NCBI GenBank assembly: GCA_964588165.1
Contig: CAZPMS010000002.1
Coordinates: 15,951-79,950, forward strand
Direction: 5' to 3'
Length of the DNA stretch: 64,000 nt
Origin: an uncultured Gammaproteobacteria bacterium
GTDB lineage: Bacteria; Patescibacteriota; Patescibacteriia; UBA1558; UBA10009
Shown: in pieces, positions 599-52,438 of the stretch
Layout: every line of letters begins with the position of its first letter
How positions within the stretch are numbered: position 1 is the first letter of the stretch
The notes under the pieces: generated by a model
The model's database searches: none
Told to the model about the DNA's origin: nothing
What the model saw: the letters and a program-made list of their open reading frames with translations, nothing else
Made by a program: the position numbers and the translations under genes

Positions 599-660
599 TT
601 AATGATTGCCGCGCCCCGCTTGTGAAGCGAAGCGGAGTCGGGCCGGGGATAATTAAAAAT
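599..660. repeat. GC-rich repeat family B, copy 1. Its core 'ccgcgccccgcttgtgaagcgaagcggagtcgggccgggg' lies about 20 bp upstream of the start of the minus-strand gene 1..587.
   Basis: It is near-identical (1 mismatch over about 55 bp including the 'taatgattg' leader) to 2448-2497. It is flanked by the direct repeat 'attaaaaatt' (591-600 and 652-661). Confidence 0.7.
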
Positions 661-2441: not shown

Positions 2442-2509
2442 ATGATTAATGATTGCCGCGCCCCGCTTGCGAAGCGAAGCGGAGTCGGGCCGGGGATGAT
2501 TAATGATTG
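2442..2509. repeat. GC-rich repeat family B, copy 2. A 40-bp GC core (2456-2495) is flanked by a perfect 14-bp direct repeat 'atgattaatgattg' (2442-2455 and 2496-2509).
   Basis: The core differs from copy 1 at a single position. It lies 20 bp upstream of the nusB-NUDIX start codon. The flanking direct repeats look like a target-site duplication. Confidence 0.75.
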
Positions 2510-3144: not shown

Positions 3145-4998
3145 TTATTCTTCAATAATAATTTCTTCAGTTGAGGTGGCGGCATTAGGGTCCCTGCCTA
3201 TTAAGCATTTGGCTGGCCAAGGAATGTAGTGGCTGGTAAACCTTTCTTCTTCAATATTCCCATCTGGATAGGTAACTTTATAATCAAAATAAGCGTCTGC
3301 TCCGGCATGGGCGCTTTCGGTACAATTTTCTTCTCCCGGTTCCAGCTCATCAGTTTCTATATAAACTGTTTCTCCGGGAGATTTTATATTATAAATGGTT
3401 GGATCAGTTTGTTCGGCAATCCTGCCATCGCTGGTTCCCCAAAAATCAAAATATAAATTATCGCCTTCAATCCGGGCTTGTATTAAAATGTGCTTATCGG
3501 TATCATTTTTAAATTGATAATCCGGCCAGGGATCATAAATGGTAGCGTCTGTTCCGGCCGGTTCGTAATAAACAACTCTGTAAGAATGGTTGCGTCTTTC
3601 TATAACCGGCAGGCCCGAAGCCAAAGTGCTTCTAAAAACGGTAGTGCCAATTTGGCACAAGCCGCCTCCGTATTCAGGGATAGTTTCATCACCTTTAATA
3701 ACCAGCTCCTGCAGATAACCAGCCTCTTTATTTATATCACCAAGGGCCTCTATTAAAGAAAAGATTTCATCGGGTGAAATAAGAAGGCCGTTTAAGCTTT
3801 CAGCGCCTACGGCAATATTGTGCCGGCGGTTTTTAGGGCTGCCCCTAAAATTAGAATGGCCGGTACCTAAAATTTCATTTACACCTAAATCATTAATGCT
3901 GCCGGTAGTAACTTTAGCTTTTGTTTCTTCAATGGTCAGCTCAATTTTAAATGAATTTTCTTCCAGCAAATCATGCTCAATTTTTTCAAAAGATTTATCT
4001 ATATTTAAAGCCAGGCCATCTTGGCTGCCTTGGAATTCAGTTACCCGGCCGTTGGTAATATCAAATTTGGCATCTAAAGTGGGTATATAAATATCGGGTG
4101 CGATATTTTCAGCCAAATAGGCTTTGCTGGTGGAGGCGTCTAAACCTAAAATAATCCCATCTTCCGATTTTTTAAAAACAAACCAGTTTTTAAAAATATT
4201 ATTAGAGATTTCCCAGTTTTTATTTTTACCTATCAGAGTTAAGGTTGAAGTAGAGACCAAATCAGATAATCTGTTAACAGCTATGTCTGTTATTTTATTT
4301 TTTTTAATTAAGGGGTCATCAACTATTAGGTTTAAAACAATTGGCTCTAGTGAAAGATGCTGGACACTATTTAGGGAATCCGAAAGTAATTGTTGATAAT
4401 CAAAAGTGGTTCCGGCTTCTTCTGCCCGTATAGTTATATTTAATTGGCCATCAATAATTGGTACCGCTTCTATTTTAGGGGTGGAGAATTTTTCAAAGTT
4501 ATCCTTTAAAATGGTTAAAAATTCTTCTTGGTCTAATTGAAATTTTACGGGAAAGTTATGGCCGAAAATTAAGGCTTTTAGTTGCTGCCAAAAGTTTCGG
4601 CTGTAACCCTTTTTACGTCCAAATAAATAGGCTTGGTCTACTGTTTCAGCAACATCAAAATAAATAAGTTGGTAAGAAACATCCGGATCTGTAGCTGGCA
4701 GTGTGGGGAAGATAGTTATTTCTTCACCATTAAATTTATATTTTAAGCCATGCTTAATAAATTCATCCACCTGGCTTTGCCAATTTTCGGTGGCCTGAGC
4801 ATGGCTTAATTTTTTTAATTCCTGCTGGTTAATAGTAACGCCGGGAAAAAAGTTATATCTATTGGCTTTGGCATAGCTAAAGGCAAAAATTGCCAAAACC
4901 GTTAAAATAATTAAAAAAATGGTTACAAAAGTAAGTAGCCATTTCATTATTAAAGGAAGCGGGTATTTAGTGTTTATTGGAAGGTTCATCTTCAACAT
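3145..4998 (-). CDS. VanW-domain protein with an N-terminal membrane anchor.
   Basis: N-terminal TM segment (LLTFVTIFLIILTVLAIFAF). C-terminal VanW-like motif: GYLQELVIKGDETIPEYGGGLCQIGTTVFRSTLASGLPVIERRNHSYRV. Confidence 0.7.
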   Translation of the reverse strand: MLKMNLPINTKYPLPLIMKWLLTFVTIFLIILTVLAIFAFSYAKANRYNFFPGVTINQQELKKLSHAQATENWQSQVDEFIKHGLKYKFNGEEITIFPTLPATDPDVSYQLIYFDVAETVDQAYLFGRKKGYSRNFWQQLKALIFGHNFPVKFQLDQEEFLTILKDNFEKFSTPKIEAVPIIDGQLNITIRAEEAGTTFDYQQLLSDSLNSVQHLSLEPIVLNLIVDDPLIKKNKITDIAVNRLSDLVSTSTLTLIGKNKNWEISNNIFKNWFVFKKSEDGIILGLDASTSKAYLAENIAPDIYIPTLDAKFDITNGRVTEFQGSQDGLALNIDKSFEKIEHDLLEENSFKIELTIEETKAKVTTGSINDLGVNEILGTGHSNFRGSPKNRRHNIAVGAESLNGLLISPDEIFSLIEALGDINKEAGYLQELVIKGDETIPEYGGGLCQIGTTVFRSTLASGLPVIERRNHSYRVVYYEPAGTDATIYDPWPDYQFKNDTDKHILIQARIEGDNLYFDFWGTSDGRIAEQTDPTIYNIKSPGETVYIETDELEPGEENCTESAHAGADAYFDYKVTYPDGNIEEERFTSHYIPWPAKCLIGRDPNAATSTEEIIIEE

Positions 4999-8676: not shown

Positions 8677-9621
8677 TTAACTTGTCCAGTAATATGCCAT
8701 TATACTAAAATCCACCAGATCAATTTTACCGTCATTATTTAAGTACTCTGCTTCAATTTGGGCAAACTCTTCATTTAAAGGTTTATTGTACCAATAAGCC
8801 ACTATAGAAAAGTCAACTAAGTTAACTTGGCCGTCGTTATTAACATTGCCTCTTATAAACACATTCTCTTCCATTAAAATATTTTCGGTACCCACCTCAA
8901 AACCGATATTATAACTGTAACCGCTGACCATTTGGTTATTTATGGAAGCTCGGGATTTAGTGTTATGGTGCCCATAGTCTAAGATTGATGTATCAAAATT
9001 ACTTAAATAGATGCCATTGGTATCAGAACTGGTGTAGGCAAATTGTTCAATATCTGAATTAACAGCGATAGTAATATCAGCCAAGGGAGTAGTTTGGCCA
9101 AAGATAGCCAGATTATCACCTCTTTTTACTTGGCTTTTATCTATTGTAATGGTAGGAGAAATAAATACTCCGCTAACTGTAGTAATAATGCCTTGGGATA
9201 CAGTTATAGGGTAGGTTAAAATATTAGATCGCCGTTCTTCTTCATCATGGCTATAAAGAGAAAAGATATAGTTGCCAGAAGACAAGCCAGTTACATTTAT
9301 GGAAAAATTGGCGTCTGCTCCGGAAATGGTAGTGGCTATTACTTGGGTATCTTTTAATAGAGTTACTATGCTTTGAGGATAAGCTTTGCCAGTAAATATT
9401 ACACTGGTAGCCGGGGTGTTATAGCCTCCGCCACCGCCTCCTCCGCCACCGCCTCCTCCGCCACCGTTTTCTTCTTCCTCTTCTTCAGGCTCGGCTACTG
9501 TGGCGGAAACATTAACTGTTCCTTGTTCAGCTAAAACATAGTTTTGGGTAAAACCGAAAATAGTTAAAGAGATTACTAATAAAAAAATAGCAATTAATTT
9601 ATTTTTTTTGCTATTCTTCAT
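8677..9621 (-). CDS. Secreted protein with a Glu/Gly-rich linker and two C-terminal dockerin-type repeats.
   Basis: Signal peptide present. EPEEEEEENGGGGGGGGGGGGGG linker. C-terminus NVNNDGQVNLVDFSIVAYWYN...LNNDGKIDLVDFSIMAYYW, which fits the dockerin DxNxDGxIxxxD pattern. Confidence 0.6.
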   Translation of the reverse strand: MKNSKKNKLIAIFLLVISLTIFGFTQNYVLAEQGTVNVSATVAEPEEEEEENGGGGGGGGGGGGGGYNTPATSVIFTGKAYPQSIVTLLKDTQVIATTISGADANFSINVTGLSSGNYIFSLYSHDEEERRSNILTYPITVSQGIITTVSGVFISPTITIDKSQVKRGDNLAIFGQTTPLADITIAVNSDIEQFAYTSSDTNGIYLSNFDTSILDYGHHNTKSRASINNQMVSGYSYNIGFEVGTENILMEENVFIRGNVNNDGQVNLVDFSIVAYWYNKPLNEEFAQIEAEYLNNDGKIDLVDFSIMAYYWTS

Positions 9622-10691: not shown

Positions 10692-13223
10692 TTAGTAGTT
10701 GGCGGTGGCTACGAAAGTCAAGGCTGATGTATAAGTTCCGGAATCAGTATTGGAGGCAATATTGGCCAGGAAAAAGACATCATAATCTGTAGTAGCTGTA
10801 GCGCTGGAGGCTGAAGCAACTTGATCAGCAGCCGATTCTCCGTCGTAGGCATAATTGGCCGTATCATAAGGTGAAGAAGCTGTACCGCTACCGCCTGATG
10901 CAGATAATTTAATGCCAAACTGTTCAGAGCCAGCACTTGGAGCGGTTGCGCTTCCACCAATAGCCGTTATTGTATCACCATATGAATTTGTTAAAGTTGG
11001 CCCTTCTATAGTGATAGTATAACCATTGGTGGCGCTACTGGAAGCGGATAGAGTGTGAGCTACGGCCTCTGTGCCGCTGCCATCCAAGTCTCCTGTAGCA
11101 TATCTTGAATTACCGCTGTCTAAAGTTCCAAAACCAATAGTATTATCAGAAATGCTAAAAGTTAAAGTTTGAGGATTTTTTATGGTGGTAGTATTATTAA
11201 TGGCTACAGCAGTGCCAGGTGTTACAGAACCAGTAGCAGTAACTTCAGAAGAAGGGTCAGTTATTTCTATTAAGATAGTTTCATCAGCCGAAGCTCCAGA
11301 TTCAACATCCAAAACTATATAAGCACAAATTTGCGAGGTGCCAACGGTCATAGTGCCGGAAATGGTGGCGTCACTAGAGGAAAAAGAAGCAGCCGTGCCA
11401 AAAAGGCTTTCACCGCCATCGTAATTACACGATGCCGAAGTTTCATAATAAATGTCAACATTAGTTAAGTTTGAATCAGCATTAACCGTTCCGGTCTCAC
11501 TAATAATAATTTCTGTCACATCGGTACTGCCAGTATCTCTAATTAAGGTAAAAGCTCCTCCAATATATATATCTTCAGTAGGGTTTACGGCATAGCCGAT
11601 TTGGTTACCGGTAGTTCCGACAGTAATTTCTCCGCTAGCCTGTAGAGTGGTAGAACTGGGGATGGCTTCAGTTCCGGAATCGATGGTGCCAGTATTAACT
11701 GTTATTTCATTAGGCGGATCAGTAATTTCTATATCAATAACTTCACCAGCAGAAGCTCCGGCACCTACATCTAAAATAATATAAATACAATCTTGATTTG
11801 TGTCTACGTGTAGGTTGCCCGTTACCACAGCATCTTCTGAAGCATCAAAGGCGGCATCAGTGCCAAAAAGAGTTTCACCGCCACCGTAACTGCAAGAACC
11901 AGTTTGCTCATAACGAATATCCAAGTTAGCTAGATTATTTTGGGCGCTAACATCACCAGCTTCACTTACAGTAATTGATGTAATAGTTCCGCTACCGCCA
12001 TCAGCTACAATAGTAAACCAGCCGCCAATATAATTATCAGTAGAATCAACGTTAAGGTTAGCCACTTGATTATCAGCCGCTGTTAAAGTAAAAGAAGGCT
12101 CAGCTACAGTGGTTGAACCGGCAATAGCTACTGCTGTACCTGGAGTCACTGCATCAGTAGCTGTTACTTCTGAAGAAGGATCAGTAATTTCTAATTCAAT
12201 AGTTTGAGAGTCAGAAGCTCCAGGCCCTAAATTATATTCCACATAAGCACAAACTTGAGAAGTGCCTACGCTCATAGAACCGGTAACGGTGGCATTTTCT
12301 GAACCATCAAAAGCATTAGCTGTACCAAAAATCGTTTCATCTCCGTTATAAGTACAGGTAGCAGCCGTTTCATAACGAATTACAATGTCTTTTAAATTGG
12401 TTTGGGCGCTAAAAGTGCCATCAGTTTCGCTCAGAACTATTTGGGTTACAGTATCGCTGCCGGTATTTGTAACAAAAGTAAAAGCCCCGCCGGCGTTATT
12501 TACATTGGAACCGGTATAAACAGTGCCGGTTTGGGTGCCGGTGGTGCCAACAGTAATTTCGGGGCTTATAATATCTATTTGAGCACACCTGTTGGTTGAA
12601 TATTCGTGCACTCCGGTTAAGCTAATATAGTAAGTTGTGCCATATGCAGCATTGCTGGTAACTTGGAAACCCCATTCAAGTTCTGAAAATTCATAAGGGC
12701 TATTATCAATACTGATAGTTTGTGAATTGGCGCTGTTATCAATTTGTGAGCCAGCTACAAAAGAAGCAGTTGCCGGGTCGGTAATCCCGCCATCCAAGGA
12801 TACATTTGTGGTATCGCTGCCGCTGGCAAGTTGAGTATCGTACATACAAAAAGGATGGACACCGCAACTGCCACTAACTGGAATAGCCGTGAAGTCGGTG
12901 GTACAGTCTGAATTGGTGCCGTAAGTAACTCCAAAAGAAACACCATTGGCGTCTTTGGTGCCGGTATTGTGGACTAAATGCCTTACTCTAAGAACCTGCC
13001 CTCTATCTATACTGGTAGTAGCTGTATTTTCAGCAACGCCCCAACTGGCATTAACTTCATTTCCATCATCATTACGCCAACGATATGCTTCTAGATCTAA
13101 ATTTGCTACACCTGAGGCTAAAATAAATTCTAAATTTAAAATGGTAAAAAAACCAATAGCGATAACTATCACTAAAGTTGCTATAATAATTGTTTCTTTA
13201 TTTTTTTTATGATTTGTAAACAT
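10692..13223 (-). CDS. Large Thr/Gly/Ser-rich surface adhesin-like protein with an N-terminal TM anchor and three tandem domain repeats of about 140 aa.
   Basis: Repeats of the form ...DIRYE(T/Q)..(S/T)C.Y.GGE(T/S)(I/L)FGT..AF..SE....TG...V.T.Q.C.Y.....G.GAS......IEITDPSSEVTAT..VTPGTAVAI occur three times. A T8 tract lies at codons 5-8. Confidence 0.6.
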   Translation of the reverse strand: MFTNHKKNKETIIIATLVIVIAIGFFTILNLEFILASGVANLDLEAYRWRNDDGNEVNASWGVAENTATTSIDRGQVLRVRHLVHNTGTKDANGVSFGVTYGTNSDCTTDFTAIPVSGSCGVHPFCMYDTQLASGSDTTNVSLDGGITDPATASFVAGSQIDNSANSQTISIDNSPYEFSELEWGFQVTSNAAYGTTYYISLTGVHEYSTNRCAQIDIISPEITVGTTGTQTGTVYTGSNVNNAGGAFTFVTNTGSDTVTQIVLSETDGTFSAQTNLKDIVIRYETAATCTYNGDETIFGTANAFDGSENATVTGSMSVGTSQVCAYVEYNLGPGASDSQTIELEITDPSSEVTATDAVTPGTAVAIAGSTTVAEPSFTLTAADNQVANLNVDSTDNYIGGWFTIVADGGSGTITSITVSEAGDVSAQNNLANLDIRYEQTGSCSYGGGETLFGTDAAFDASEDAVVTGNLHVDTNQDCIYIILDVGAGASAGEVIDIEITDPPNEITVNTGTIDSGTEAIPSSTTLQASGEITVGTTGNQIGYAVNPTEDIYIGGAFTLIRDTGSTDVTEIIISETGTVNADSNLTNVDIYYETSASCNYDGGESLFGTAASFSSSDATISGTMTVGTSQICAYIVLDVESGASADETILIEITDPSSEVTATGSVTPGTAVAINNTTTIKNPQTLTFSISDNTIGFGTLDSGNSRYATGDLDGSGTEAVAHTLSASSSATNGYTITIEGPTLTNSYGDTITAIGGSATAPSAGSEQFGIKLSASGGSGTASSPYDTANYAYDGESAADQVASASSATATTDYDVFFLANIASNTDSGTYTSALTFVATANY

Positions 13224-14868: not shown

Positions 14869-15975
14869 TTGAATATGAAAATATTAGGTATAGAAACATC
14901 ATGTGATGAAAGCGCAGCTGCGCTGCTTCACGTATCACATAACACATATCACTTATCCAGTAATATTGTTTTATCGCAGATAGATATTCATAAAAAATAT
15001 GGTGGCATTGTGCCAGAGGTGGCAGCACGGAAACATGTTGAGTCAATTATTCCTGTTATTGAAGAATCCATTGGTAAGCAAAAACCGGATTTAATTGCTG
15101 TAACCTATGGTCCTGGTTTAATTACTTCGTTACAGGTTGGTGTGCAAACAGCTAAGACCTTGGCTTACATTTGGCAGGTTCCTTTAGTTGGGGTAAATCA
15201 TTTGGAGGCTCATCTTTGGAGCTTTATTTTGAATGAAGAAAGACGAGTGAAGAATGACGTCACACGTCACACGTCACACGTCAAACAATTTCCGGCAGTT
15301 GGTCTAATCGTATCAGGCGGGCATACGGAAATGGTTTTAGTAAAGGGAATTGGCTCGCCTCGATTCCCGTCCCGACTCGGTCGATCCGAGGCAAACGACG
15401 AAGCGGGCAAGTATAAATTGATTGGCAGAACCAGAGACGATGCAGTAGGCGAAGCTTTTGATAAAGTGTCTAAGATGTTAGAAACTGGTTACCCGGGCGG
15501 ACCGATTATTAGCCACTTTGCCAAAAAAGGCGATCCAGCAAGTATAGATTTTCCTAGACCGATGATAGATAGTGACGATTTTGATTTTTCTTTTTCCGGT
15601 TTAAAAACAGCAGTTAAGTATCATCTTAAACAAATGCCTAAAACCGGCAATTTAAGCCAGGCTTTTATAAATAATGTTTGTGCCAGTTTCCAAAAAGCGG
15701 TAATTGATGTTTTAGTTAGTAAAACCATTAAAGCTACAGAAAAATATAAGGCCAAATCAATTATTTTGGGCGGGGGAGTTAGTGCCAATGAAAATTTAAT
15801 CCATAATCTATTATCCATAACCAAAAAAAGGGAGATAGACTTTTATTATCCAGAATTAAAATTTACCGGTGATAATGCGGCTATGGTGGCTTTGGTAGGC
15901 TTCTTAAATAAAAAATCTGCCAAGAAAAATAATTGGCAGAAGTTGGTGGCCGAAGCAAATCTTAAGTTGGTTTAG
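14869..15975 (+). CDS. tsaD: tRNA N6-adenosine threonylcarbamoyltransferase TsaD (Kae1/YgjD family) carrying two in-frame repeat-encoded insertions.
   Basis: MKILGIETSCDESAAAL...VNHLEAH...SGGHTEMV...DDAVGEAFDKV...GYPGGP. Extra segments ERRVKNDVTRHTSHVKQ and SPRFPSRLGRSEANDEAG are encoded by repeats at 15255-15285 and 15352-15412. Confidence 0.9.
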   Translation: MNMKILGIETSCDESAAALLHVSHNTYHLSSNIVLSQIDIHKKYGGIVPEVAARKHVESIIPVIEESIGKQKPDLIAVTYGPGLITSLQVGVQTAKTLAYIWQVPLVGVNHLEAHLWSFILNEERRVKNDVTRHTSHVKQFPAVGLIVSGGHTEMVLVKGIGSPRFPSRLGRSEANDEAGKYKLIGRTRDDAVGEAFDKVSKMLETGYPGGPIISHFAKKGDPASIDFPRPMIDSDDFDFSFSGLKTAVKYHLKQMPKTGNLSQAFINNVCASFQKAVIDVLVSKTIKATEKYKAKSIILGGGVSANENLIHNLLSITKKREIDFYYPELKFTGDNAAMVALVGFLNKKSAKKNNWQKLVAEANLKLV

Positions 15976-16744: not shown

Positions 16745-17062
16745 TTATTTTAAGTTAATTAATACTAAGCCAATTGCAATAACAATTATACCGGCAATTT
16801 GGATAGGGGCAATGGTTTCTTTAAAGCCAAAGTAGCCCACTATGGTAACTACAATTACCGAAATAGCAATCCATAAAATATTGGTAATGGCGGCGCCTTC
16901 GTATTTTAAAGAAAGGGCAAAAACAAAACCGGCGCCGCCAAACAGCAAAACTGTTAAAATAAGCAATAGTGGATTTTTGCTAACACTGTAGAATTTAGCA
17001 GATAAAACACCGCCTAAATCAAGTAGAGTAATTATAGAAATGTAATACCAAAAGGGGCTCAT
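16745..17062 (-). CDS. Small 4-TM membrane protein, SMR/DMT-like
   Basis: 105 aa. C-terminal segment GFKETIAPIQIAGIIVIAIGLVLINL resembles TM4 of EmrE-like transporters. Confidence 0.45.
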   Translation of the reverse strand: MSPFWYYISIITLLDLGGVLSAKFYSVSKNPLLLILTVLLFGGAGFVFALSLKYEGAAITNILWIAISVIVVTIVGYFGFKETIAPIQIAGIIVIAIGLVLINLK

Positions 17063-18238: not shown

Positions 18239-19021
18239 ATGGATGCAACAAATCCAGTTGGATCTGACGGCCGCACGTATCATTTGCAGACGCGCAAAGG
18301 TGATCTTGCTGAACATTGTTTACTTGTGGGTTCGCCCGAGCGAGCGAAGATGGTCGCAGAGACTATGTTTGAGTCTGCTAAACTTGTTGGCGATCATCGA
18401 GGCCTTAAGACGTTCACCGGTATGGTGAATAATGTGCCAATATCGGTGGTTACAACTGGTATGGGTAGCGCGTCGATGGCCATTGTTCTGCCCGAAGCAT
18501 TCTACTCGGGTGCCAAACGTTTTATCCGTGTCGGTTCATGTTCAACGCTCTGGCAAGAGCCGAGTCCTGGCGATTCAGCTATCTGTTCCGGTGCGGTGCG
18601 CTTGGATGGTGCCAGCGAGAACTGGGCGCCGATTGAGTTCCCGGCTGTGCCTGATTTCCGGGTTGTGAGTGCCATGGTGGAGGCGGCAGAGTTGCTTTCT
18701 CTTCCATATCATGTCGGCATTGGCGCCACAACCACCTGCTTTAATGAGGGGCAGGCAAGGCCTGATAGCTCGGGCTACCTCCCACCTCGGCTTAAGATGA
18801 TGCATGATGAGCTCGTCCAGCGTGGTGTTCTTTTCTACTCAATGGAAGAGGCGACACTGTTCGTATGGTGTTCTACCCATGGCAGGGATTTGTGGGCCGG
18901 TGCAGTAGACGCTATCTTTGGAAACCGCCACACCAACGAACTCAAGGTCTGCGGTGAGGAGGAGGCAGCCAAGATTGCTATTCGCACCCTACTCATTATC
19001 AGCGAGCGCTACCCGTTGTAA
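18239..19021 (+). CDS. Nucleoside phosphorylase, PNP/UDP family (DeoD-type purine nucleoside or uridine phosphorylase-like). High-GC gene.
   Basis: LLVGSPERAKMVAETMFESAKLVGDHRGLKTFTGMVNNVPISVVTTGMGSASMAIVLPE and FIRVGSCSTL resemble DeoD GDPLRAKYIAE...RGMLGFTG and IIRVGSCG. RBS aggagg. GC is about 57%, against about 35% for the host. Confidence 0.8.
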   Translation: MDATNPVGSDGRTYHLQTRKGDLAEHCLLVGSPERAKMVAETMFESAKLVGDHRGLKTFTGMVNNVPISVVTTGMGSASMAIVLPEAFYSGAKRFIRVGSCSTLWQEPSPGDSAICSGAVRLDGASENWAPIEFPAVPDFRVVSAMVEAAELLSLPYHVGIGATTTCFNEGQARPDSSGYLPPRLKMMHDELVQRGVLFYSMEEATLFVWCSTHGRDLWAGAVDAIFGNRHTNELKVCGEEEAAKIAIRTLLIISERYPL

Positions 19022-21817: not shown

Positions 21818-21897
21818 CGTTGACTAACTACAATCTTTAACATAAAATGAGGATACAATTTATAAAAGCGTATCCTCTTTTTGTTTAGAGGATAAAT

Positions 21898-22050
21898 CCG
21901 GGAGTAATGTCGCCTGGAGAGCTGCTAGCAGAAACCCGCCTTGAGCGAAGTCGAGAGGCAGGAAATAGAGTTAGCCGGGGTAAGCCCGTTACAGCTTATA
22001 AATGAAGTATAAATTAAGGTGGTACCGCCCTGAGCGCAGTCGAAGGGCCC
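21898..22050. repeat. Two tandem units of about 70 nt each (21898-21962 and 21975-22050). Each starts 'ccggg(r)gtaa' and ends with the family C core 'ccgccYtgagcgMagtcgaRRgg'.
   Basis: Direct comparison of the two halves. The same core occurs in frame inside the Elp3 gene at 60556-60582. The pair lies between two intrinsic terminators (21849-21884 and 22045-22070). Confidence 0.55.
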
Positions 22051-22111
22051 TTATGCATAGGGGTCTTTTTATTTTTAAATAAAAAACCATAATTAATGAT
22101 ATAATATAAAT

Positions 22112-23199: not shown

Positions 23200-26100
23200 A
23201 TGAAAGAATTATCTAAATCATATCAGCCAGATAAACACGAAAGCTCAATTTACCAAAAATGGGAAGAGTCCGGGTTTTTTAATCCCGATAATTTGCCAGG
23301 CAAGCGCAAGAAAGTTTTTTCTGTTAGCCTGCCGCCGCCCAATGCTACCGGCATTTTGCATATTGGCCATGCTTCGATGCTGGCTTACCAAGATATTATG
23401 GTCCGGTACCATAGGCTAAAAGGTGATAAAACTTTGTGGTTGCCCGGAACAGACCACGCAGCCATTGCCACTCAAACGGTGGTAGAAAAAAAATTAATCA
23501 AGGAAGAAAAAAAGCGCAAAGAAGATATTGGCCGAGAAGAGTTCAGAAAAAGAATAGATAAATATGTAGAAGAATCCCGTGGCACCATCCGTAAACAGCT
23601 CCGGGCCATGGGCTCATCTTTAGATTGGTCTAGAGAAAGATTTACCTTAGATAAAGATTTATCATTAGCAGTTAGAACAGCTTTTGCGAAAATGTATAAT
23701 GATGGACTAATTTATAGAGGTTATCGGATTGTTAATTGGTGCCCGCACTGTAAATCCACTTTAGCTGATGACGAAGTTGAGTATAAGGAACAAAAGGCCC
23801 CGTTTTATTATTTTAAATACGGTCCGGTGGTTATTGGTACAGCCAGACCAGAAACTAAATTTTCTGATAAAGTAATTATTGTTCATCCTAAAGATAAGCG
23901 TTTTAAAGATATCGCAGGTAAGGAATTTGAAGTGGAATGGATTAACGGCAAGATTAAAGCAAAAGTTATTACCGATGAAGCAGCTGATATGGAAATGGGA
24001 ACCGGGGCCATGACCATTACTCCGGCCCATAGTTTTGTAGATTTTGATTTGGCTCAAAAATATAAATTAAAGGTAGAAGAAATAATTGATAAAGATGGAA
24101 ATTTAACAGAAGTTGCTGGTGAATTTGCTGGTCAACCAGCTGCTAAAGCCAGAGAGAAAATTGTTAATAAGCTGGCCAAGAAAGGCTTAGTTGATAAAAT
24201 TGATGAAGATTACGTCCATAATTTATCTCTTTGTTACCGGTGTAAAACGCCTATTGAACCGTTGCCTTCTAAGCAGTGGTTTGTTGATGTAAATAAAAAG
24301 ATTCCAAAAAAAGGCAAGTCATTAAAGCAACTGGCCTCCGATGTAGTCAAAAATGGTGATATAAAAATAATTCCTGATAAATTCAACAAAACTTATTTCC
24401 AGTGGATGGATAATTTAAGAGATTGGTGTATTAGCCGCCAAATTTGGTATGGACATCAAATTCCGGTTTGGTATAGGGACGCAAAAGCGCAAAAGCGCAA
24501 AAGCGCAAAAAAGGAGCAAGATATTATTGTACCTAAAGAAATAACTGAAATCAATCTAATGCGCCACGGTTTAACTGATTGGAACAAAGACCAAAAAATT
24601 CAGGGCAGAACTAACGTGCCTCTAGATGAATCCAGCGTAGATAAAATTAATAAAATAATGCCTCAGTTAAGGTCAGAAAATTTTGATATAATTATTAGCT
24701 CACCCTTAATGAGAGCCAAACAAACGGCTGAAATTGTAAATAAACAATTAAATCTGCCTTTAATAGAAGATGAATTATTGGTTGAAAGAAATTATGGTAA
24801 ATTTGAAGGGAAAAAAGTAAATGATATAAAAAATGACCATCCTGATTATGCCAAGGATAAAATTAATTATGATATCCCAGGAGATGATGAAGAAACCTAC
24901 CAGGAGATTGCTCAAAGGCTGAAGAAGTTCATTAAACAAGTAAGTAAAGAATATCCTAACAAGAAAATTTTAGTTATATGCCACAATGCAGTTATCAGGA
25001 CTTTCAAGATGATAATAAAGGATTCCTCACCTAAGGAACTTTCTGGCTATAAACCTAGTTTTGACAAGTTGGTTAAATATCAAATTTTAGATGGTAACTA
25101 TAACCTAAAAGGTGTTGAGCAAGATCCTGACACTTTAGATACCTGGTTTTCATCTTCACTTTGGACATTTAGTACTCTTGGCTGGCCAGATAAAACTGAC
25201 GATCTTAAGGCTTATCATCCAACCAGTGTTATGGAAACCGGTTATGACATTTTATTTTTTTGGGTGGCCAGAATGATACTTATGTCCGAATACCTTTTAG
25301 GCCAGAAACCTTTTGAAACAGTTTACCTCCACGGCTTGGTTAAAGATAAAGAAGGCAGGAAGATGTCAAAGTCGCTTGGCAATGGCATTGATCCAATAGC
25401 CATGATTGATAAGTTTGGCACTGATGCTTTGCGGTTGGCTATGATTGTAGGAGCCAGTGCCGGTAATGACATCAGGCTTTACGAAGAAAAGATAGCCGGC
25501 TATAGGAACTTTGTTAATAAACTTTGGAACATCAGCCGCTACATATTATCTACTGTTGGACAAGTTAAACCAATTGAAAAATTGCCAGAAGCAAAAACTT
25601 TAGCTGATAAATGGATTCTTTTAGAATTTAATCAAATCGTAGAATCAACCACTGGTAATATTGAACAGTTTAAGTTCTCTCAAGCCGGTGAAGAGCTTTA
25701 TGAATTTACTTGGTCTAAACTGGCCGATTGGTATTTGGAAATCGCCAAGGTTGAAGAGGGAAAAGATGAGATCCTTTTATACATTTTAGAAAAGCTACTT
25801 ATTTTATGGCATCCCTTTTGTCCGTTTATTACAGAAGTTATTTGGGAGATATTTAAGACAGATAAGCTATTGATGATTAAAGAATGGCCGGAAATAAAGA
25901 AACAAGATATAAAAAACAAGATACAAGATGAATTTGAAAAAGTTCAAGAGATTGTTTCAGCTATCAGGAACACCAGGGCAGAACATCTGGCTAATCCCAA
26001 AAAAGTTTATGGTTGTTCTATAAAAACTTCAAAGAAAAAAGTGATTGAAGAGAATAAAAATATAATTGAAGCTTTGGCCAAAATTAAAATTATTCCTAAG

Positions 26101-26334
26101 GCCACTGGCGTTGCTATTAATCTTGCTTGGGCTGACATGATTTTAGATATTAAGGAAAATAGGGAAGTGGCCAAAAATAAAGCTAAAGAAACTGTAAATT
26201 TAGAACGTTATATCCAAATCCAAGAAGCAAAATTAAGGAATAAAGATTTTACTAAAAAGGCTCCACCTAAAGTGGTGGAGGAAGAAAAGGAGAAATTATC
26301 GCAAGCAAAAGAAAAGTTAGCCAAATTAAAATAG
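23200..26334 (+). CDS. valS: Valyl-tRNA synthetase carrying an inserted histidine-phosphatase (PGAM-like) domain.
   Basis: HIGH motif (PPPNATGILHIGHA). WCISRQIWYGHQIPVWY. KMSKS. C-terminal coiled coil. About 213 extra aa lie between PVWY and DPDTLDTWFSS. They contain LMRHGLTDWN (RHG), GKFEG and ICHNAVIR, the catalytic motifs of the histidine phosphatase superfamily. Confidence 0.9.
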   Translation: MKELSKSYQPDKHESSIYQKWEESGFFNPDNLPGKRKKVFSVSLPPPNATGILHIGHASMLAYQDIMVRYHRLKGDKTLWLPGTDHAAIATQTVVEKKLIKEEKKRKEDIGREEFRKRIDKYVEESRGTIRKQLRAMGSSLDWSRERFTLDKDLSLAVRTAFAKMYNDGLIYRGYRIVNWCPHCKSTLADDEVEYKEQKAPFYYFKYGPVVIGTARPETKFSDKVIIVHPKDKRFKDIAGKEFEVEWINGKIKAKVITDEAADMEMGTGAMTITPAHSFVDFDLAQKYKLKVEEIIDKDGNLTEVAGEFAGQPAAKAREKIVNKLAKKGLVDKIDEDYVHNLSLCYRCKTPIEPLPSKQWFVDVNKKIPKKGKSLKQLASDVVKNGDIKIIPDKFNKTYFQWMDNLRDWCISRQIWYGHQIPVWYRDAKAQKRKSAKKEQDIIVPKEITEINLMRHGLTDWNKDQKIQGRTNVPLDESSVDKINKIMPQLRSENFDIIISSPLMRAKQTAEIVNKQLNLPLIEDELLVERNYGKFEGKKVNDIKNDHPDYAKDKINYDIPGDDEETYQEIAQRLKKFIKQVSKEYPNKKILVICHNAVIRTFKMIIKDSSPKELSGYKPSFDKLVKYQILDGNYNLKGVEQDPDTLDTWFSSSLWTFSTLGWPDKTDDLKAYHPTSVMETGYDILFFWVARMILMSEYLLGQKPFETVYLHGLVKDKEGRKMSKSLGNGIDPIAMIDKFGTDALRLAMIVGASAGNDIRLYEEKIAGYRNFVNKLWNISRYILSTVGQVKPIEKLPEAKTLADKWILLEFNQIVESTTGNIEQFKFSQAGEELYEFTWSKLADWYLEIAKVEEGKDEILLYILEKLLILWHPFCPFITEVIWEIFKTDKLLMIKEWPEIKKQDIKNKIQDEFEKVQEIVSAIRNTRAEHLANPKKVYGCSIKTSKKKVIEENKNIIEALAKIKIIPKATGVAINLAWADMILDIKENREVAKNKAKETVNLERYIQIQEAKLRNKDFTKKAPPKVVEEEKEKLSQAKEKLAKLK

Positions 26335-37727: not shown

Positions 37728-37749
37728 ATTTATATTTTGATTTATCGGT

Positions 37750-37782
37750 AGCCCGCCGAATCGGCGGGCTACTTTTGTCTAC
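37750..37782 (+). terminator. Intrinsic terminator after gyrA
   Basis: gtagcccgccgaatcggcgggctac followed by ttttgtc. Confidence 0.7.
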
Positions 37783-37840
37783 ATTAGTCTTGTCAATAAA
37801 TAAAGAATATGGTAGTTTTTTAAAACGATTACAATTAATC

Positions 37841-37908
37841 GTGTATCGTATATCGCGTGTCTTATATCAGGTTACACGCTATACGTCACACGTTACACGA
37901 CCAAAAAT
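37841..37908. repeat. Repeat family D copy. It includes the perfect palindrome acgattacaattaatcgt and 'gctatacgtcacacgttacacg', directly upstream of the Nif3-like gene.
   Basis: See 1521-1571. Confidence 0.5.
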
Positions 37909-39791: not shown

Positions 39792-40820
39792 TTGATTATG
39801 CCAGATGAACGACTTATAACGGCTAAAGAAAAGCCGGACGATAAAAATTTAGATTTAACCTTAAGGCCCAGAGAACTGGTGGAGTATTTTGGCCAGCAAA
39901 AAATAAAGGACAATCTGGAAATTTTTATGAAAGCGGCCAAACAAAGAAAAGAGCCAATTGAACACGTTTTATTATATGGCCCGCCAGGTTTAGGAAAAAC
40001 AACCTTAGCCCACATTATTGCCAAAGAAATGAATGGTAATATAAGGGTGACTTCTGGCCCGGCCATAGAGCGGGCCGGAGATTTAGCTGCTATTTTAACC
40101 AATTTAGAAGATGGCGATGTTTTATTTATTGATGAAATCCACCGGTTGAATAAAGTAATAGAGGAGGTTTTATATCCGGCAATGGAAGATTATGCTTTAG
40201 ATATTATTATTGGTAAAGGCCCTTCGGCCAGAACCCTGCGGTTGGATTTGCCAAAGTTTACCATTATTGGAGCCACCACCCGCTATAATCTATTATCTTC
40301 ACCCCTAAGAGATAGGTTCGGCTCAACTTATAGATTGGATTATTATAATCATGATGAAATTGAGCAGATTATTGAGCGCAGTTCAAAAATACTTTCGGTA
40401 GAGGTTATTAATGAAGCTGCCAAACTAATTGCTGAACGTTCCAGGTTAACCCCCAGAATTGCTAATCGCTTGTTAAAAAGAGTTAGAGATTACGTTCAAG
40501 TTAAAGGTGATGGTAAAATTACCCCAGAACTGGCTAAAGAAGCTTTGGAGCTTATGGATGTTGATCATCAGGGCCTTGATGCTTTGGATAGAAGGATATT
40601 AGAAAATATAATTGAAAAATTTAATGGCGGTCCAGTTGGGGTAAGTTCAATAGCTGCCGCGGTTCAGGAAGAAGAGGGCACTATTGAAGAAATTTATGAG
40701 CCTTATTTAATGCAGTTGGGCTTTATAGTCCGTACGCCTCGTGGCCGTGTAGTAACTGAAGCTGGCTATAAACATCTTGGATTAGAAGTACCGAGTGAGT
40801 TGCAGTCGAAATTAATATAA
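39792..40820 (+). CDS. ruvB: Holliday junction branch-migration helicase RuvB
   Basis: [20 protein letters not shown]. Sensor motifs and a winged-helix C-terminus. Confidence 0.9.
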
Positions 40821-45669: not shown

Positions 45670-45764
45670 GATAACAAAAACCCCGCAATAATGCGAAGGC
45701 TTTTGTTTTTATTTTTATTTCAATTCCGTTGACGTTTTTTAAATGTACATATTAATCGAAAAGT

Positions 45765-45795
45765 GGACCCCGCTGCTCGCGAGCGGCAGGGGTGG
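45765..45795. repeat. Palindrome family A copy 1 (ccccgctgctcgcgagcggcagggg), intergenic.
   Basis: The core gctcgcgagc is perfectly palindromic. Other copies are at 46275-46304 and 47723-47747. Confidence 0.7.
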
Positions 45796-46100: not shown

Positions 46101-46274
46101 TTTTGTTTTGGAAATTAGACATTAAAAAATGCCTTGAACAAAAACCAAGACATCGCACGAATCAATATTAAATTGGTTTTTGTTTTATTTTGGCCCACCT
46201 TTGCTAAAGCTTCGGCGGATAAATAAGCTATTTTGGCTTACATAAGTAATGATAGCATAAATTTTTAAAAAAGT

Positions 46275-46304
46275 CAACCCAGCTGCTCGCGAGCGGCTGG
46301 GTTG
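46275..46304. repeat. Palindrome family A copy 2 (caacccagctgctcgcgagcggctgggttg).
   Basis: Near-perfect 30-bp palindrome in intergenic DNA. Confidence 0.7.
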
Positions 46305-46688
46305 TTATAAGACGGGGCAAGCTTGTACACACCGTCATACCATACAAAGTGTTGGAATTAATCCAAGTGCTTTGCAGGGTGAAGTCGTTTACCATATGTT
46401 CAAGCAGACCGTTAGCTTGTCTGGAGATTTCAAAATCATTAGCCTGTCTTAGAACATTAAAGAAGTGGCAGCTCCTAGATATTATCACCTCCTATCAGCT
46501 AGTTAGCAGGAAGTAATTCACTTCGGGAGCCTCCTTTGTTAAGTGATCGTTTATTGAGTAGATTAATGGGTAGTCGCGAGGCACCTTCCATTGCCCGTTT
46601 AAGAAATCTACGAAAACCAGAAGAACTTCTACGATTGACACAAATTGAACTTCTGCCGATTGCCATCAAACCTCCATTTGTTAAAAAA

Positions 46689-46712
46689 AAGAGGGATCTA
46701 GCCCCTCCATTT
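46689..46712 (-). terminator. Intrinsic terminator on the minus strand
   Basis: The reverse complement reads gagggGCTAGATccctc followed by tttttttt. Confidence 0.55.
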
Positions 46713-46919
46713 TGTTGTTAAAAGTTCTCTTTATTTAATTATAGAAATTATTCCAATTTTAGGATAGTGGAAAACTAATTAAACAGAAAATAGGCTACAT
46801 CTCCATCTTTTAATTGGTAATTTTTTGTTTTTAATAGATTTTAAACTTTTGTAGTGCTTGACTTTAATCTAATAATAGGTTAATTTAGGTTTATTACGTT
46901 CAATATACAAGGGGGTACC

Positions 46920-47102
46920 ATGATTGGTCCGCATCCTGATGACTATGTCAGATATACGGCGAAAGAGCTTCGAGATGAAGAAAGACTTTGCGAGAGAATA
47001 GTCAGAGGGTATGGCTTTGATGGGCATGGAAGGATTTGGTGGGCATGGAAGGATTTTCAAGCATTTATGTTTAATCTTTTCAGGCTCAAGCGTCTGTTTT
47101 AA
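46920..47102 (+). CDS. Small hypothetical protein (60 aa) with a strong RBS. It contains a tandem 17-bp duplication.
   Basis: aagggggt sits 6 nt upstream of the ATG. The sequence gggcatggaaggattt occurs twice in tandem (47021-47056). Confidence 0.35.
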   Translation: MIGPHPDDYVRYTAKELRDEERLCERIVRGYGFDGHGRIWWAWKDFQAFMFNLFRLKRLF

Positions 47103-47114
47103 GTGGGCGCTTTT

Positions 47115-48215
47115 TTATTTGTTAAATAAAAAGTAAACAGTATCACCGTCTTTTATTGGGTAGTTTTTACCTTCAGTTTTAATTAGGCCCTGTTCTTTAG
47201 CTTGAATTTCTCCGCCAGCTTCAATTAAACTTTGCCAATTTACAATTTCGGCTCTAATAAAGCCCTGTTCAAAATCGGTATGGATAACTCCGGCTGCCTG
47301 CGGTGCCTGCGTGCCACTTTCAACAGTCCAGGCATGGGCTTCTTTTGGGCCGGCAGTGAAGAAGGTTATGAGATTTAAAAGATTGTAAGATTGTAAGATT
47401 AATTTATCTAAACCACTTTGGCTTATGCCGAGTGTTTCTAAATATTGTTTAGCCTCAACGGCTGGCATAGAGGCCAGTTCAGATTCTAACTTGGCAGATA
47501 TGGTTAAGTAAGGTTTTTTATAATGATCCTTGGATTTAGTTAGTTCATTTTCAGAAACATTATAAACATAAAGGATTGGTTTATAAGTTAGAAGATTTAA
47601 TTCTTTAATAAATTTAATATCTTCATCAGCTACTTCTAAATTAATAGCAAATTTTTCTTCTTCCAGAATCTTTTTTAAGTTTTTTAAAATTTCAATGTTT
47701 TTTAAAAGAATTTTGTCTTTTGACCCAGCTGCTCGCGAGCGGCTGGGAGAACCTTTAGCTTGCTTGGTTAGTTTTTCTAAAAGACCATTAACCGTTTCTA
47801 AGTCGGCCAGGATTAATTCTAAATTAATAGTTTTTACATCATCTTCCGGATCAATTTTGCCGTTTACATGAATTATATCGTCATTAGCAAAATCTCTAAC
47901 CACCTCAGCAATCGCATCAACCTCTCTTATATGAGAAAGGAATTTATTGCCTAAGCCTTCACCATCGGCTGCGCCCTTTACTAGGCCTGCAATATCTACA
48001 AATTCAATAGCGGTTGGTACTACTTTGGGAGAATTATAAAGCTGGGCAAGCTTGTCTAACCTATTATCAGGAACGGCCACCACACCTACATTAGGCTCAA
48101 TAGTGCAAAATGGATAATTAGAAGCATCCACCTGATTTTTAGTTAGGGCAGTAAATAAAGTTGATTTGCCTACATTAGGCAAGCCCACAATGCCGATTGA
48201 AAAACTCATAAACAA
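47115..48215 (-). CDS. ychF: Ribosome-binding ATPase YchF (Obg-like). It carries an in-frame family A palindrome insertion (SPSRSRAAGS).
   Basis: GIVGLPNVGKSTLF. TGS domain. C-terminal ...LNLITFFTAGPKEAHAWT. Confidence 0.85.
   Translation of the reverse strand: MFMSFSIGIVGLPNVGKSTLFTALTKNQVDASNYPFCTIEPNVGVVAVPDNRLDKLAQLYNSPKVVPTAIEFVDIAGLVKGAADGEGLGNKFLSHIREVDAIAEVVRDFANDDIIHVNGKIDPEDDVKTINLELILADLETVNGLLEKLTKQAKGSPSRSRAAGSKDKILLKNIEILKNLKKILEEEKFAINLEVADEDIKFIKELNLLTYKPILYVYNVSENELTKSKDHYKKPYLTISAKLESELASMPAVEAKQYLETLGISQSGLDKLILQSYNLLNLITFFTAGPKEAHAWTVESGTQAPQAAGVIHTDFEQGFIRAEIVNWQSLIEAGGEIQAKEQGLIKTEGKNYPIKDGDTVYFLFNK
47723..47747. repeat. Palindrome family A copy 3, inside the ychF coding sequence and in frame.
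   Basis: acccagctgctcgcgagcggctggg. Confidence 0.7.
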
Positions 48216-52358: not shown

Positions 52359-52438
52359 TACGCCCGCCCGCCATGGCTCCGCCGAAGGCGAGTCGGGCGG
52401 GGAGCAGATAATTTATGAAGTTTCAATCAGGGATTAAT

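Follow-up and report, generated by a model that had tools for sequence, protein, structure and literature searches.

REP and REPIN elements are mobilised by RAYT transposases (IS200/IS605-like Y1), and MITEs, which are usually longer than 50-100 bp, carry terminal inverted repeats derived from IS. The GC clusters of yeast mitochondria are short, GC-rich hairpin mobile repeats in a very AT-rich genome, found occasionally in coding sequence (var1), and some elements related to them are translationally bypassed. Repeats of another kind, with tetra- to heptanucleotide units, are located inside genes at the contingency loci of Haemophilus and Neisseria. REPs are extragenic by definition, and one end of most of them carries a GTAG or CGTC tag (PMC3733652). 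MITEs such as Coxiella QMITE1/2, ERIC and Nezha have been described to insert in frame into ORFs on occasion (PMC5896051). The Rickettsia palindromic elements (RPEs) measure ~100-150 bp, form ten defined families and are dispersed both between genes and in frame in unrelated housekeeping genes, where they are read through as an extra peptide that is compatible with the fold (PMC10969869). The case presented here, from the tsaD gene of a small-genome bacterium of the CPR (Patescibacteria) type, is an RPE-like phenomenon with REP-sized elements. The window (the whole stretch of DNA that was analysed, 64,000 nt with a GC content of 36.7%) contains the gene and its two inserts at the following positions.

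14875-15975, plus strand: tsaD, an intact coding sequence of 366 aa that includes the two inserts in frame (from the ORF list).
15257-15283, plus strand: insert 1, ACGTCAC x3.9, a heptamer repeated perfectly in tandem (Tandem Repeats Finder).
15355-15408, plus strand: insert 2, a GC-rich element of 54 nt, read here as a decayed hairpin (DNA TCGCCTCGATTCCCGTCCCGACTCGGTCGATCCGAGGCAAACGACGAAGCGGGC, peptide SPRFPSRLGRSEANDEAG).

The product of the gene scores 270.7 bits with PF00814 (TsaD), for which the cut-off is 24.8, and TsaD chains in the PDB match it with E = 4.5e-71. The motif columns H109 and H113 (HxxxH), S147-G148-G149-H150-T151 (SGGHT) and D333 and N334 (DN(A)) are invariant in an alignment of 38 sequences. 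The AF2 model (mean pLDDT 88, pTM 0.86) has the two-lobed ASKHA fold, and its core superimposes on E. coli YgjD (4wq5) with a Foldseek TM of 0.92 and an rmsd of 2.3 A. The preliminary description, made from the sequence, had claimed two extra segments that keep the frame, and this is borne out by the alignment to Thermotoga maritima TsaD (6nak/6n9a), which lacks 13 aa and 18 aa exactly where the two inserts are located; neither insert contains a stop codon. The only segments of the model with a pLDDT below 50 are 123-135, within which insert 1 is located, and 162-177, which holds insert 2 between strands 151-156 and 180-188. Both are flanked by confident secondary-structure elements, so that in the model the inserts lie in disordered surface loops, a point which the preliminary description had put forward for checking. 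The loop of insert 1 follows the HxxxH helix and is hypervariable across the clade. The explanation that we favour, and which we consider probable as a whole, is that two kinds of short repetitive DNA have become fixed in frame at two permissive surface loops of TsaD, and that tsaD is a functional gene which would be translated through both of them.

Insert 2 has a GC content of ~65% (66% for the island), as opposed to 37% in the rest of tsaD, and its codon adaptation (~0.36, compared to 0.69 in the remainder of tsaD) places it among the lowest handful of 5580 windows of 54 nt. Its minus strand carries the family motif GAGTCGGGACGGGAA. A GGC codon lies directly upstream (15352-15354) and a second GGC is the last codon of the insert (15406-15408), this trinucleotide being the only flanking repeat. 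The element had been described as GC-rich, partly palindromic and about 60 bp long; the GC richness holds, over 54 nt, but the palindromy is weak, and in fold energy the insert does not surpass shuffled sequence (z = -0.9 for RNA, -0.5 for DNA), which rules out the expectation that the insert folds significantly better than shuffles. Among 119 related TsaD proteins, only two contain insert 2, namely that of the window and that of its closest relative P0002 (68% identity). Over ~260 nt of tsaD DNA these two differ by exactly two indels, of 21 nt and 30 nt. The 30-nt indel corresponds to the apex of the GC element, of which P0002 keeps both ends (12 + 12 nt, TCGCCTCGATTC and GGCGAAGCTGGT).

The preliminary description also related this element to GC-rich intergenic repeats elsewhere in the window. 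The repeats in question form a family of intergenic hairpins, of which three copies are located in the window and a fourth (copy F) just beyond its edge.

606-650, plus strand: copy A, intergenic GC hairpin in the spacer separating two minus-strand genes, that of RNase III and the one next to it (repeat family D7, motif match).
2453-2497, plus strand: copy B, intergenic GC hairpin between rpmF (L32) and nusB-NUDIX.
52360-52407, plus strand: copy C, a diverged intergenic GC hairpin after a translin-family gene (motif match, alignment).

The family motif GAGTCGGGMCGGGRA has 4 matches where 0.04 are expected. Copy A has a fold energy of -21.5 kcal/mol and is flanked by a direct repeat of 13 nt (12/13 identical), and copy B is flanked by a perfect direct repeat of 14 nt, ATGATTAATGATTG, though both of these repeats could instead be AT-rich heptamer arrays. 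The spacer between rpmF and nusB-NUDIX is only 20 nt long in the relative L134. Insert 2 shares with copies A, B and C a block of 16 nt (14/16 identical) and a second, collinear block. The similarity of the one block, which was the pre-planned test, has a family-wise shuffle P of ~0.06, while for the chain of two blocks against copies A and B the observed score was not attained in any of 300 shuffles, with a statistic that was devised after the blocks were seen. The kinship of insert 2 with the intergenic family is hence moderately supported by the sequence comparison: the insert is of the same general class as the REP-like spacer hairpins, and probably of the same family.

The foremost alternative is that insert 2 arose locally, by slipped or template-switched synthesis or as the filler of a repaired break, so that its likeness to the hairpins would be one of shared GC-rich composition. 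We consider this unlikely, even though several results agree with it: besides the one-block P value and the fold energy, no second copy of the insert was found in ~83 kb of this genome, and a search of a protein database with its six-frame translation gave 48 candidates that share words with it but no match at E <= 10, the method being weak for peptides of 18 aa. The two blocks, however, occur in the same order and orientation as in copies A and B, and they span the boundary of the 30-nt deletion of P0002, so that a single ancestral element fits better than nested events. Demonstrable copies of intergenic hairpins, found in frame in ychF, elp3 and, at this very loop, the tsaD of the relative L141, also speak against a local origin. 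Two larger scans bear little on the matter. A motif of 16 nt, GAGTCGGGMCGGGRAT, compared with genome contigs (596 Gb), gave among the matches listed only chance matches in high-GC genomes, because it is too short, and the gapped two-block pattern gave a single chance match in metagenome contigs, in a high-GC SDR gene; the latter scan missed the source contigs themselves and is therefore uninformative on distribution.

The in-frame copies in the window belong to two further families, P and E.

45759-45794, plus strand: P-family palindrome, copy 1, intergenic.
46269-46304, plus strand: P-family palindrome, copy 2, intergenic, adjoining a promoter-like TTGACT-17-TATCAT on the minus strand.
47721-47750, minus strand: P-family palindrome CCCAGCTGCTCGCGAGCGGCTGGG within ychF (47115-48209, minus strand), in frame, encoding SPSRSRAAGS.
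21935-21962, plus strand: E-family copy E1, inside a T-box-like leader.
22025-22050, plus strand: E-family copy E2, in the terminal hairpin of the T-box-like leader.
60559-60582, minus strand: E-family element (CCTGAGCGAAGTCGAAGGGC on the plus strand) within elp3 (59488-61119, minus strand), in frame, encoding RPSTSLRT.

The copy in ychF and the intergenic one at 46275-46304 are identical over 25 nt (E = 1.7e-9), and the YchF sequences of H. influenzae and T. thermophilus have a gap of 10-11 aa at the position of the former. The copy in elp3, whose product contains the Pfam domains Radical_SAM and Radical_SAM_C, is 95% identical to E2 over 20 nt (E = 5.7e-4), and the Elp3 of M. infernus (6iaz) shows a gap of 8 aa there. 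Inserts are also found in the TsaD of other CPR lineages, where 61 of the 119 related proteins have at least one insert of at least 6 aa, at about eight recurrent sites. The 22-nt hairpin CCCGCCCTTCACGAAGGGCGGG of L141 occurs three times, once between genes and twice in frame in tsaD at the same two loops as in the window, and the tsaD of L136 contains an in-frame perfect palindrome of 40 nt with a 6-bp direct repeat, TTTACC, on both flanks. The elements of the P family, L136 and L141 are near-perfect palindromes. Siblings of the tsaD inserts were present in the flanks of L141 only, those of L134, L135 and L136 (6-21 kb) having none. The general mechanism, by which copies of intergenic hairpins come to lie in frame in genes, thus has independent support from ychF, elp3 and the tsaD of other CPR bacteria, in which GC palindromes sit at the same loops.

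Other candidates within coding sequences were discarded. AT-rich 8-mer arrays (AAAGATTG-like; D16) in queA, pcrA and ychF were considered as a second in-frame repeat family and rejected: compared with solved structures, the array regions of QueA and PcrA are native Lys-rich sequence, with a difference of at most 4 aa. The GC hairpin at 40045-40083 in ruvB was likewise rejected as an insert, as it encodes a conserved motif, and most other GC islands within ORFs are native Gly/Ala/Pro motifs too.

Insert 1 is of a different nature. Tandem Repeats Finder reports ACGTCAC with period 7, 3.9 copies, 100% matches and a score of 54, and a perfect period-7 array of 27 nt is far beyond chance in 64 kb. 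Compared to the tsaD of P0002, the insert amounts to 21 additional nucleotides, i.e. three heptamer units encoding 7 aa (VTRHTSH). The preliminary description had attributed about 13 extra residues to this array; the array is indeed perfect, but supplies only 7 of them, and the remaining residues at this site belong to a loop which is variable and, in every CPR relative, longer than that of Thermotoga. Among the relatives compared, the 21-nt expansion was found in the window lineage only. The repeat unit recurs between genes.

37835-37900, plus strand: hairpin of inverted, degenerate heptamer arrays, intergenic, containing ACGTCACACGT, the tsaD repeat unit.

Two rows of Tandem Repeats Finder output, 37838-37868 and 37871-37899, fall within this hairpin, whose fold has z = -2.55. 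An 18-mer search with the tsaD heptamer pattern, for which 0.00 matches are expected, matches it with 2-3 mismatches. Only one hairpin, the terminator-like one at 37748-37772, begins with GTAG.

Given that the heptamer is not a multiple of three, is perfectly repeated and lies inside an ORF, the array could be thought of as a contingency (phase-variation) switch, in which the gain or loss of one unit shifts the frame and turns tsaD off or on, and P0002 has at the same position a different heptamer, AAAGAAC, in two or more copies. We regard such a switch as very improbable. The array has only 3.9 copies and is identical in ten loci from different samples that were assembled independently, and the cluster of the window TsaD protein at 90% identity has a single member sequence. 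Moreover, tsaD is a housekeeping gene for tRNA modification, essential in most bacteria studied, and neither a surface nor a virulence gene.

Even less probable is that insert 2 goes untranslated, whether because the ribosome bypasses it, as happens with the 'byp' elements of Magnusiomyces mitochondria and in T4 gene 60, or because it is cut out of the mRNA. The idea draws on the AT-rich genome around this GC-rich element and on the two GGC codons, since a skip from one to the other would restore the canonical ...VKGIG/KYKL... junction. Against it, all in-ORF elements seen are stop-free and have lengths that are multiples of three (54, 24, 30, 24, 42 and 27 nt), which bypass does not require, with the restriction that broken ORFs would escape protein-based sampling. 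In addition, the putative take-off codon is not followed by a stop codon, and an Rfam search of the window gave no ribozyme or intron. Finally, the readings of the two segments as ancestral TsaD loops or as assembly errors were tested and rejected, for although the site-1 loop is longer throughout the CPR relatives than in Thermotoga, lineage specificity, which the preliminary description had proposed to check, is seen for both segments (insert 2 in two of the 119 proteins, the 21-nt gain in one lineage), and samples from JGI, ENA and Logan gave at least 15 independent contigs that encode the identical protein, with 99.6-100% identity to the window in the loci examined.

According to the explanation that we favour, that of repeats fixed in frame, insert 2 would descend from a small GC-rich hairpin repeat, as an old remnant of it that has partly decayed; the repeat would have entered the tip of a beta-hairpin before the window lineage and P0002 split, P0002 having presumably lost the 30-nt apex later, while insert 1 would be a recent net gain of three heptanucleotide units (21 nt). 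Such hairpins may spread by short-range copying, each insertion producing a small target duplication. Their GC richness leaves all frames free of stop codons, and in a gene that is needed selection would therefore keep only those that land in loops and add up to a multiple of three nucleotides. Heptamer arrays would change by slippage, with only net changes of three units surviving. It speaks against this part of the explanation that slippage does not usually add three units at once and that the intermediates would be frameshifts. The genes annotated in the window and its flanks (~83 kb) include no transposase or RAYT-like gene. The strains compared do not differ in the presence or absence of the elements, the population being essentially clonal, and the few strain indels seen (20 nt near 2550 and 14 nt at 17028) are located away from them. 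The inserts would best be understood as tolerated neutral or selfish DNA which lengthens loops, as nothing suggests a function for them.

The comparison with the known systems shows likenesses to several of them. The resemblance to RPEs proposed in the preliminary description applies to the outcome, i.e. in-frame, translated-through insertions in loops, and not to membership: at 22-57 nt and GC-rich, instead of ~100-150 bp, the elements are not RPEs. Like RPEs, they are found in frame in tsaD, ychF and elp3, and families with both intergenic and in-frame members are seen for P, E and the L141 hairpin, with only a moderate link for insert 2. Unlike RPEs, they are short (54 nt for insert 2, 30 nt in ychF, 24 nt in elp3 and 22 nt for the L141 hairpin), and they are GC-rich in AT-rich genomes of the Patescibacteria type, with copies clustered within ~1-2 kb; judging by these GC-rich sequences, homology to RPE families is unlikely. 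With REPs and REPINs they share the size (20-40 nt), the imperfect GC-rich hairpin, the location in within-operon spacers and local clustering (A, B, C, F, P1 and P2), the A/B/C/F family having 4 copies and the P family 3 in ~83 kb. They differ from REPs in that the A/B, P and E copies show by eye no GTAG or CGTC tag, in that no RAYT gene was seen in ~83 kb, and in their intragenic in-frame copies in ychF, elp3 and probably tsaD. As is the case for MITEs, they are small non-autonomous repeats, with a clear target-site duplication in L136 (the 6-bp TTTACC) and candidate ones in the direct repeats around copies A and B, insert 2 having only the GGC trinucleotide, but most are much shorter and without a known parent IS. 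The yeast GC clusters differ in being organellar, in belonging to other sequence families and in their proposed mobility, and the present elements show no sign of bypass. The tsaD array resembles contingency loci in having a unit that is not a multiple of three inside an ORF, and differs from them in its low copy number, its invariance in ten loci and its housekeeping host gene. A full-text literature search, including CPR and Patescibacteria, found no description of such insertions in these bacteria, in agreement with what had been stated at the outset.

Bacteria of the CPR radiation have some of the smallest known genomes, for which strong streamlining is assumed. Their conserved translation-related genes (tsaD, ychF and elp3) nevertheless tolerate repeats, probably selfish ones, inside the reading frame. 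The tsaD inserts appear to be one case of short repeats colonising conserved CPR genes, much as palindromic elements do in Rickettsia. We would tentatively go further, in what is at present rather a conjecture, and propose that CPR genomes harbour an unrecognised class of REP-sized (~22-57 nt), GC-rich, stop-free hairpins, often accompanied by 7-nt arrays, which spread by short-range copy-and-paste with small target duplications and no obvious transposase, and which repeatedly colonise the same loops of essential proteins, leading to systematic variation in loop length. If the pattern is general, it raises the question of what copies a hairpin of 22-50 nt across a few hundred bases, duplicating the target, in genomes that show no evident transposase. 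For annotators and structure predictors, it would mean that odd Arg/Ser/Gly/Pro-rich or 'KSQISNL'-type segments in CPR proteins are repeat DNA and not functional motifs. It would also provide, besides Rickettsia, a second, independent natural system in which to study the invasion of coding sequence by palindromic elements and whether these seed new loops.

The window is AT-rich (36.7% GC), and the nearest relatives in the protein database carry labels of Patescibacteria or Candidatus phyla. Among solved structures, its TsaD is best matched by TsaD/YgjD of T. maritima and E. coli. Alignment to T. maritima TsaD confirmed the two extra segments of the preliminary description, the first, of 13 residues, following the helix of the HxxxH metal site and the second, of 18 residues, following the GGHT strand. 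The former contains a perfect tandem array and the latter corresponds to a GC island, and the reading frame is preserved across both.

14875-15975, plus strand: tsaD, encoding a 366-aa TsaD (Pfam PF00814, 270.7 bits)
15257-15283: insert 1, perfect tandem array ACGTCAC x3.9, within the 13-residue stretch
15355-15408: insert 2, 54-nt island of 66% GC, encoding SPRFPSRLGRSEANDEAG

The protein was modelled with AlphaFold2 from a 38-sequence alignment (mean pLDDT 88). Only residues 123-135 and 162-177 of the model, which are the two inserts, fall below a pLDDT of 50, and this bears out their mapping to surface loops: insert 1 lies after helix 109-121, and insert 2 at the tip of a hairpin between strands 151-156 and 180-188. 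Superposition of the model on E. coli YgjD gave a target-normalised TM of 0.92 (rmsd 2.3 Å), and the catalytic residues are invariant in the 38-protein TsaD alignment; tsaD therefore looks like a functional gene, with two loops that are predicted to be floppy.

The composition of insert 2 is foreign. Its GC content is about 65%, against 37% elsewhere in tsaD, and its codon adaptation (about 0.36, versus 0.69 elsewhere in the gene) is among the lowest few of 5580 54-nt windows. The minus strand of the insert bears GAGTCGGGACGGGAA, which, with up to two mismatches, occurs 4 times in the window versus 0.04 expected; the remaining three occurrences are intergenic GC hairpins, and a fourth intergenic family member lies in a neighbouring contig region.

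606-650: intergenic GC hairpin, copy A
2453-2497: intergenic GC hairpin, copy B
52360-52407: intergenic GC hairpin, copy C
528-598 of L139: copy F, about 9 kb to the right of the window

A second collinear block (GAAGCGGGCAA versus CAAGCGGGGCG) brings the combined score above 300 of 300 shuffles, with a statistic that was picked after the blocks had been seen. When the whole of insert 2 was compared with eleven GC islands, a shuffle test gave P of about 0.006 per island and about 0.06 family-wise. The kinship with intergenic GC-rich repeats claimed in the preliminary description has moderate support, favoured by the motif count and the two-block score and weakened by the family-wise value. The partly palindromic character is weak, the insert folding no better than shuffled sequence. 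No further copy of insert 2 was found in the window, its flanks or a six-frame peptide search. A local de novo origin of this one element is unlikely, though it deserves some weight; the sequence comparisons give moderate support to the reading of insert 2 as a probable A/B/C/F family member, old and decayed.

GC hairpins and 7-nt arrays were found in association. Period-7 AT-rich arrays flank hairpins A (590-665) and B (2437-2512), where the flanking direct repeats are of 13 nt (12/13 identity) and 14 nt (perfect), respectively; the repeats could be duplicated target sites, or heptamer arrays could have served as insertion sites for the cores. In TsaD relatives, the two insert loops are occupied by 7-aa periodic peptides (KSQISNL, LEIGNWK), and the tsaD repeat unit also occurs in a spacer of the window.

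37748-37772: perfect 12-bp-stem hairpin starting with GTAG (GTAGCCCGCCGAATCGGCGGGCTAC), after gyrA and ahead of the heptamer hairpin; it looks like a terminator
37835-37900: degenerate heptamer hairpin in the spacer, two inverted arrays containing the tsaD repeat unit, just upstream of a NIF3-like gene

The default explanation of the tsaD heptamer array would be replication slippage in which only net changes of three units survive. Phase variation is highly improbable, given the low copy number, the identity of the arrays in ten loci and the housekeeping role of tsaD. It is also barely credible that insert 2 is skipped by translational bypass or removed from the RNA: the sole hint is the presence of GGC codons at its upstream edge and 3' end, whereas every insert is stop-free and a multiple of three in length, in a protein-based sampling that would miss broken ORFs.

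Alignment of orthologs showed the inserts to be lineage-specific. Among 38 close and 119 TsaD proteins, insert 2 is carried only by the window TsaD (18 aa) and that of its closest relative, P0002 (8 aa; 68% identity between the proteins). In this stretch, exactly two indels separate the tsaD DNA of the two, one of 21 nt in the heptamer array, which equals three units, and one of 30 nt in the GC element, both ends of which (TCGCCTCGATTC and GGCGAAGCTGGT) are kept in P0002. On the simplest reading, insertion of the complete GC element would predate the split of the two lineages, and an in-frame deletion would later have removed the apex in P0002. The heptamer expansion is confined to the window lineage, P0002 having a different short 7-mer repeat (AAAGAAC) in the same place, and the perfection of the array suggests that it is recent. 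An assembly artefact is excluded by the occurrence of the identical protein on at least 15 contigs (JGI, ENA and Logan assemblies), with ten fetched loci 99.6-100% identical to the window; that both segments are an ancestral loop or an artefact was tested and rejected, and has next to no chance of being correct. The population is 99.6-100% identical aside from two strain variants, a 14-nt deletion at about 17028 in contig L009, within a 105-aa ORF (16745-17062), and a 20-nt deletion at about 2550 in contig L137, beside the rpmF stop.

The entry of short repeats into reading frames is made secure as a general mechanism by three cases beyond those of the preliminary description, namely ychF, elp3 and the tsaD genes of other lineages.

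47115-48209, minus strand: ychF, encoding the ribosome-binding ATPase
47721-47750, minus strand: P-family copy in ychF, in frame, a 25-nt exact copy of the palindrome CCCAGCTGCTCGCGAGCGGCTGGG
45759-45794 and 46269-46304: intergenic P-family copies next to ychF, siblings less than 2 kb away
59488-61119, minus strand: elp3, an Elp3-type radical-SAM tRNA-modification gene
60559-60582, minus strand: E-family element in elp3, 24 nt, in frame (CCTGAGCGAAGTCGAAGGGC)
21891-22055, plus strand: T-box-like leader (Rfam RF00230, 27.2 bits, E = 2.4e-4, far under the gathering score of 93)
3154-3175, 3838-3859 and 3953-3974 of locus L141: 22-nt hairpin CCCGCCCTTCACGAAGGGCGGG, three copies within 820 nt (0 expected by chance)
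3374-3415 of locus L136: 40-nt perfect palindrome, in frame in tsaD (peptide FTPHHFLRAKSGAG), with the 6-bp direct repeat TTTACC on either side

The P-family palindrome is near-perfect over 24 nt, and its copy in ychF encodes SPSRSRAAGS, exactly at a 10-11 aa gap of the solved H. influenzae and T. thermophilus YchF structures. Similarly, the elp3 copy encodes RPSTSLRT at an 8-aa gap of the archaeal M. infernus Elp3, and 20 nt of it are 95% identical to an element of which the leader has two copies (21935-22050). In L141, a distant relative with a TsaD 50% identical to that of the window, one hairpin copy is intergenic, upstream of tsaD, and the other two occupy, in frame, the tsaD loops that hold the two inserts in the window. 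The direct repeat around the L136 palindrome is a target-site duplication, and in the tsaD genes of L134 and L135, two further relatives, other loops hold additional palindromic inserts that are GC-rich. Inserts of at least 6 aa, one or more per protein, are found in 61 of 119 TsaD relatives, at about eight recurrent sites including the two of the window. Of about ten internal indels of at least 4 aa in 12 orthologous proteins compared with the syntenic L134, five are in TsaD alone.

Several other repeats were seen in the window. The T-box-like leader, with its GGUGGUACCGC box and terminator, is upstream of adenosine deaminase and ValRS genes, and one of the two E-family GC copies inside it constitutes extra bases in the loop of its terminal hairpin. 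The ValRS (23200-26334) has 1044 aa, versus 844 aa in a syntenic relative, due to an insertion of about 200 aa annotated as a histidine-phosphatase (His_Phos_1) domain, at the 5' junction of which a perfect 8-nt tandem repeat (CGCAAAAG x3.9, 24480-24510) is read in frame. About 800 nt (46310-47100) are devoid of ORFs of at least 80 aa, contain tandem repeats of 24-26 nt (46623-46670) and of 19 nt x2.2 (47016-47056), and matched no Rfam family at gathering score. In the minus-strand ORF 8677-9621, a perfect 15-nt tandem repeat (CCTCCGCCACCGCCT x2.8, 9425-9466) specifies about 14 consecutive glycines, and an 843-aa minus-strand ORF (10692-13223), with no match in Pfam, contains repeats of about 171 nt that recur within it at 462/924-nt spacing (families D2, D4 and D6). 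The PNP_UDP_1 (nucleoside phosphorylase) gene (18239-19021) has about 47% GC, versus 37% for the genome, and contains many of the lowest codon-adaptation windows; it may have been horizontally acquired.

As for the mechanism, the elements would be short hairpins that, being GC-rich, have no stop codons in any frame, and selection on needed genes would leave only copies with a length multiple of three. All in-ORF copies observed have such a length (54, 24, 30, 24, 42 and 27 nt). Copies are clustered, with three of the P family in 2 kb, A and B 1.85 kb apart and the three of L141 in 0.82 kb; a rough calculation gives a probability of about 0.003 that three random sites in the 64-kb window would lie within 2 kb. 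Together with the direct repeats flanking the L136 palindrome and copies A and B, this clustering points to short-range copy-and-paste insertion of the kind known from REP/REPIN clusters or MITEs that hop locally. The genes of the window and its flanks include no transposase.

Rickettsia palindromic elements (RPEs) are repeats of about 150 bp with dozens of in-frame cases in metabolic genes, at fold-compatible positions (PMC10969869), and occasional in-frame insertion of MITEs is on record as well, Coxiella being one example (PMC5896051). The proposed resemblance to RPEs stands for the outcome, in-frame insertion at fold-compatible sites, and fails for size, the elements of the window falling outside the RPE size criterion. 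REPs are defined as extragenic, and most of them bear a GTAG or CGTC tag (PMC3733652). The elements of the window are like REPs in size, but are neither strictly extragenic nor GTAG/CGTC-tagged. Another analogue is offered by the GC clusters of yeast mitochondria. In agreement with the preliminary description, which had considered such insertions not described for this kind of genome, full-text literature searches, some directed specifically at CPR/Patescibacteria, turned up no account of palindromic or MITE-like repeats lying in frame in these bacteria. The principle of in-frame repeat insertion is already established; what goes beyond routine is the size of the elements, the fact that they recur in several lineages at identical loops, and their occurrence in minimal genomes.
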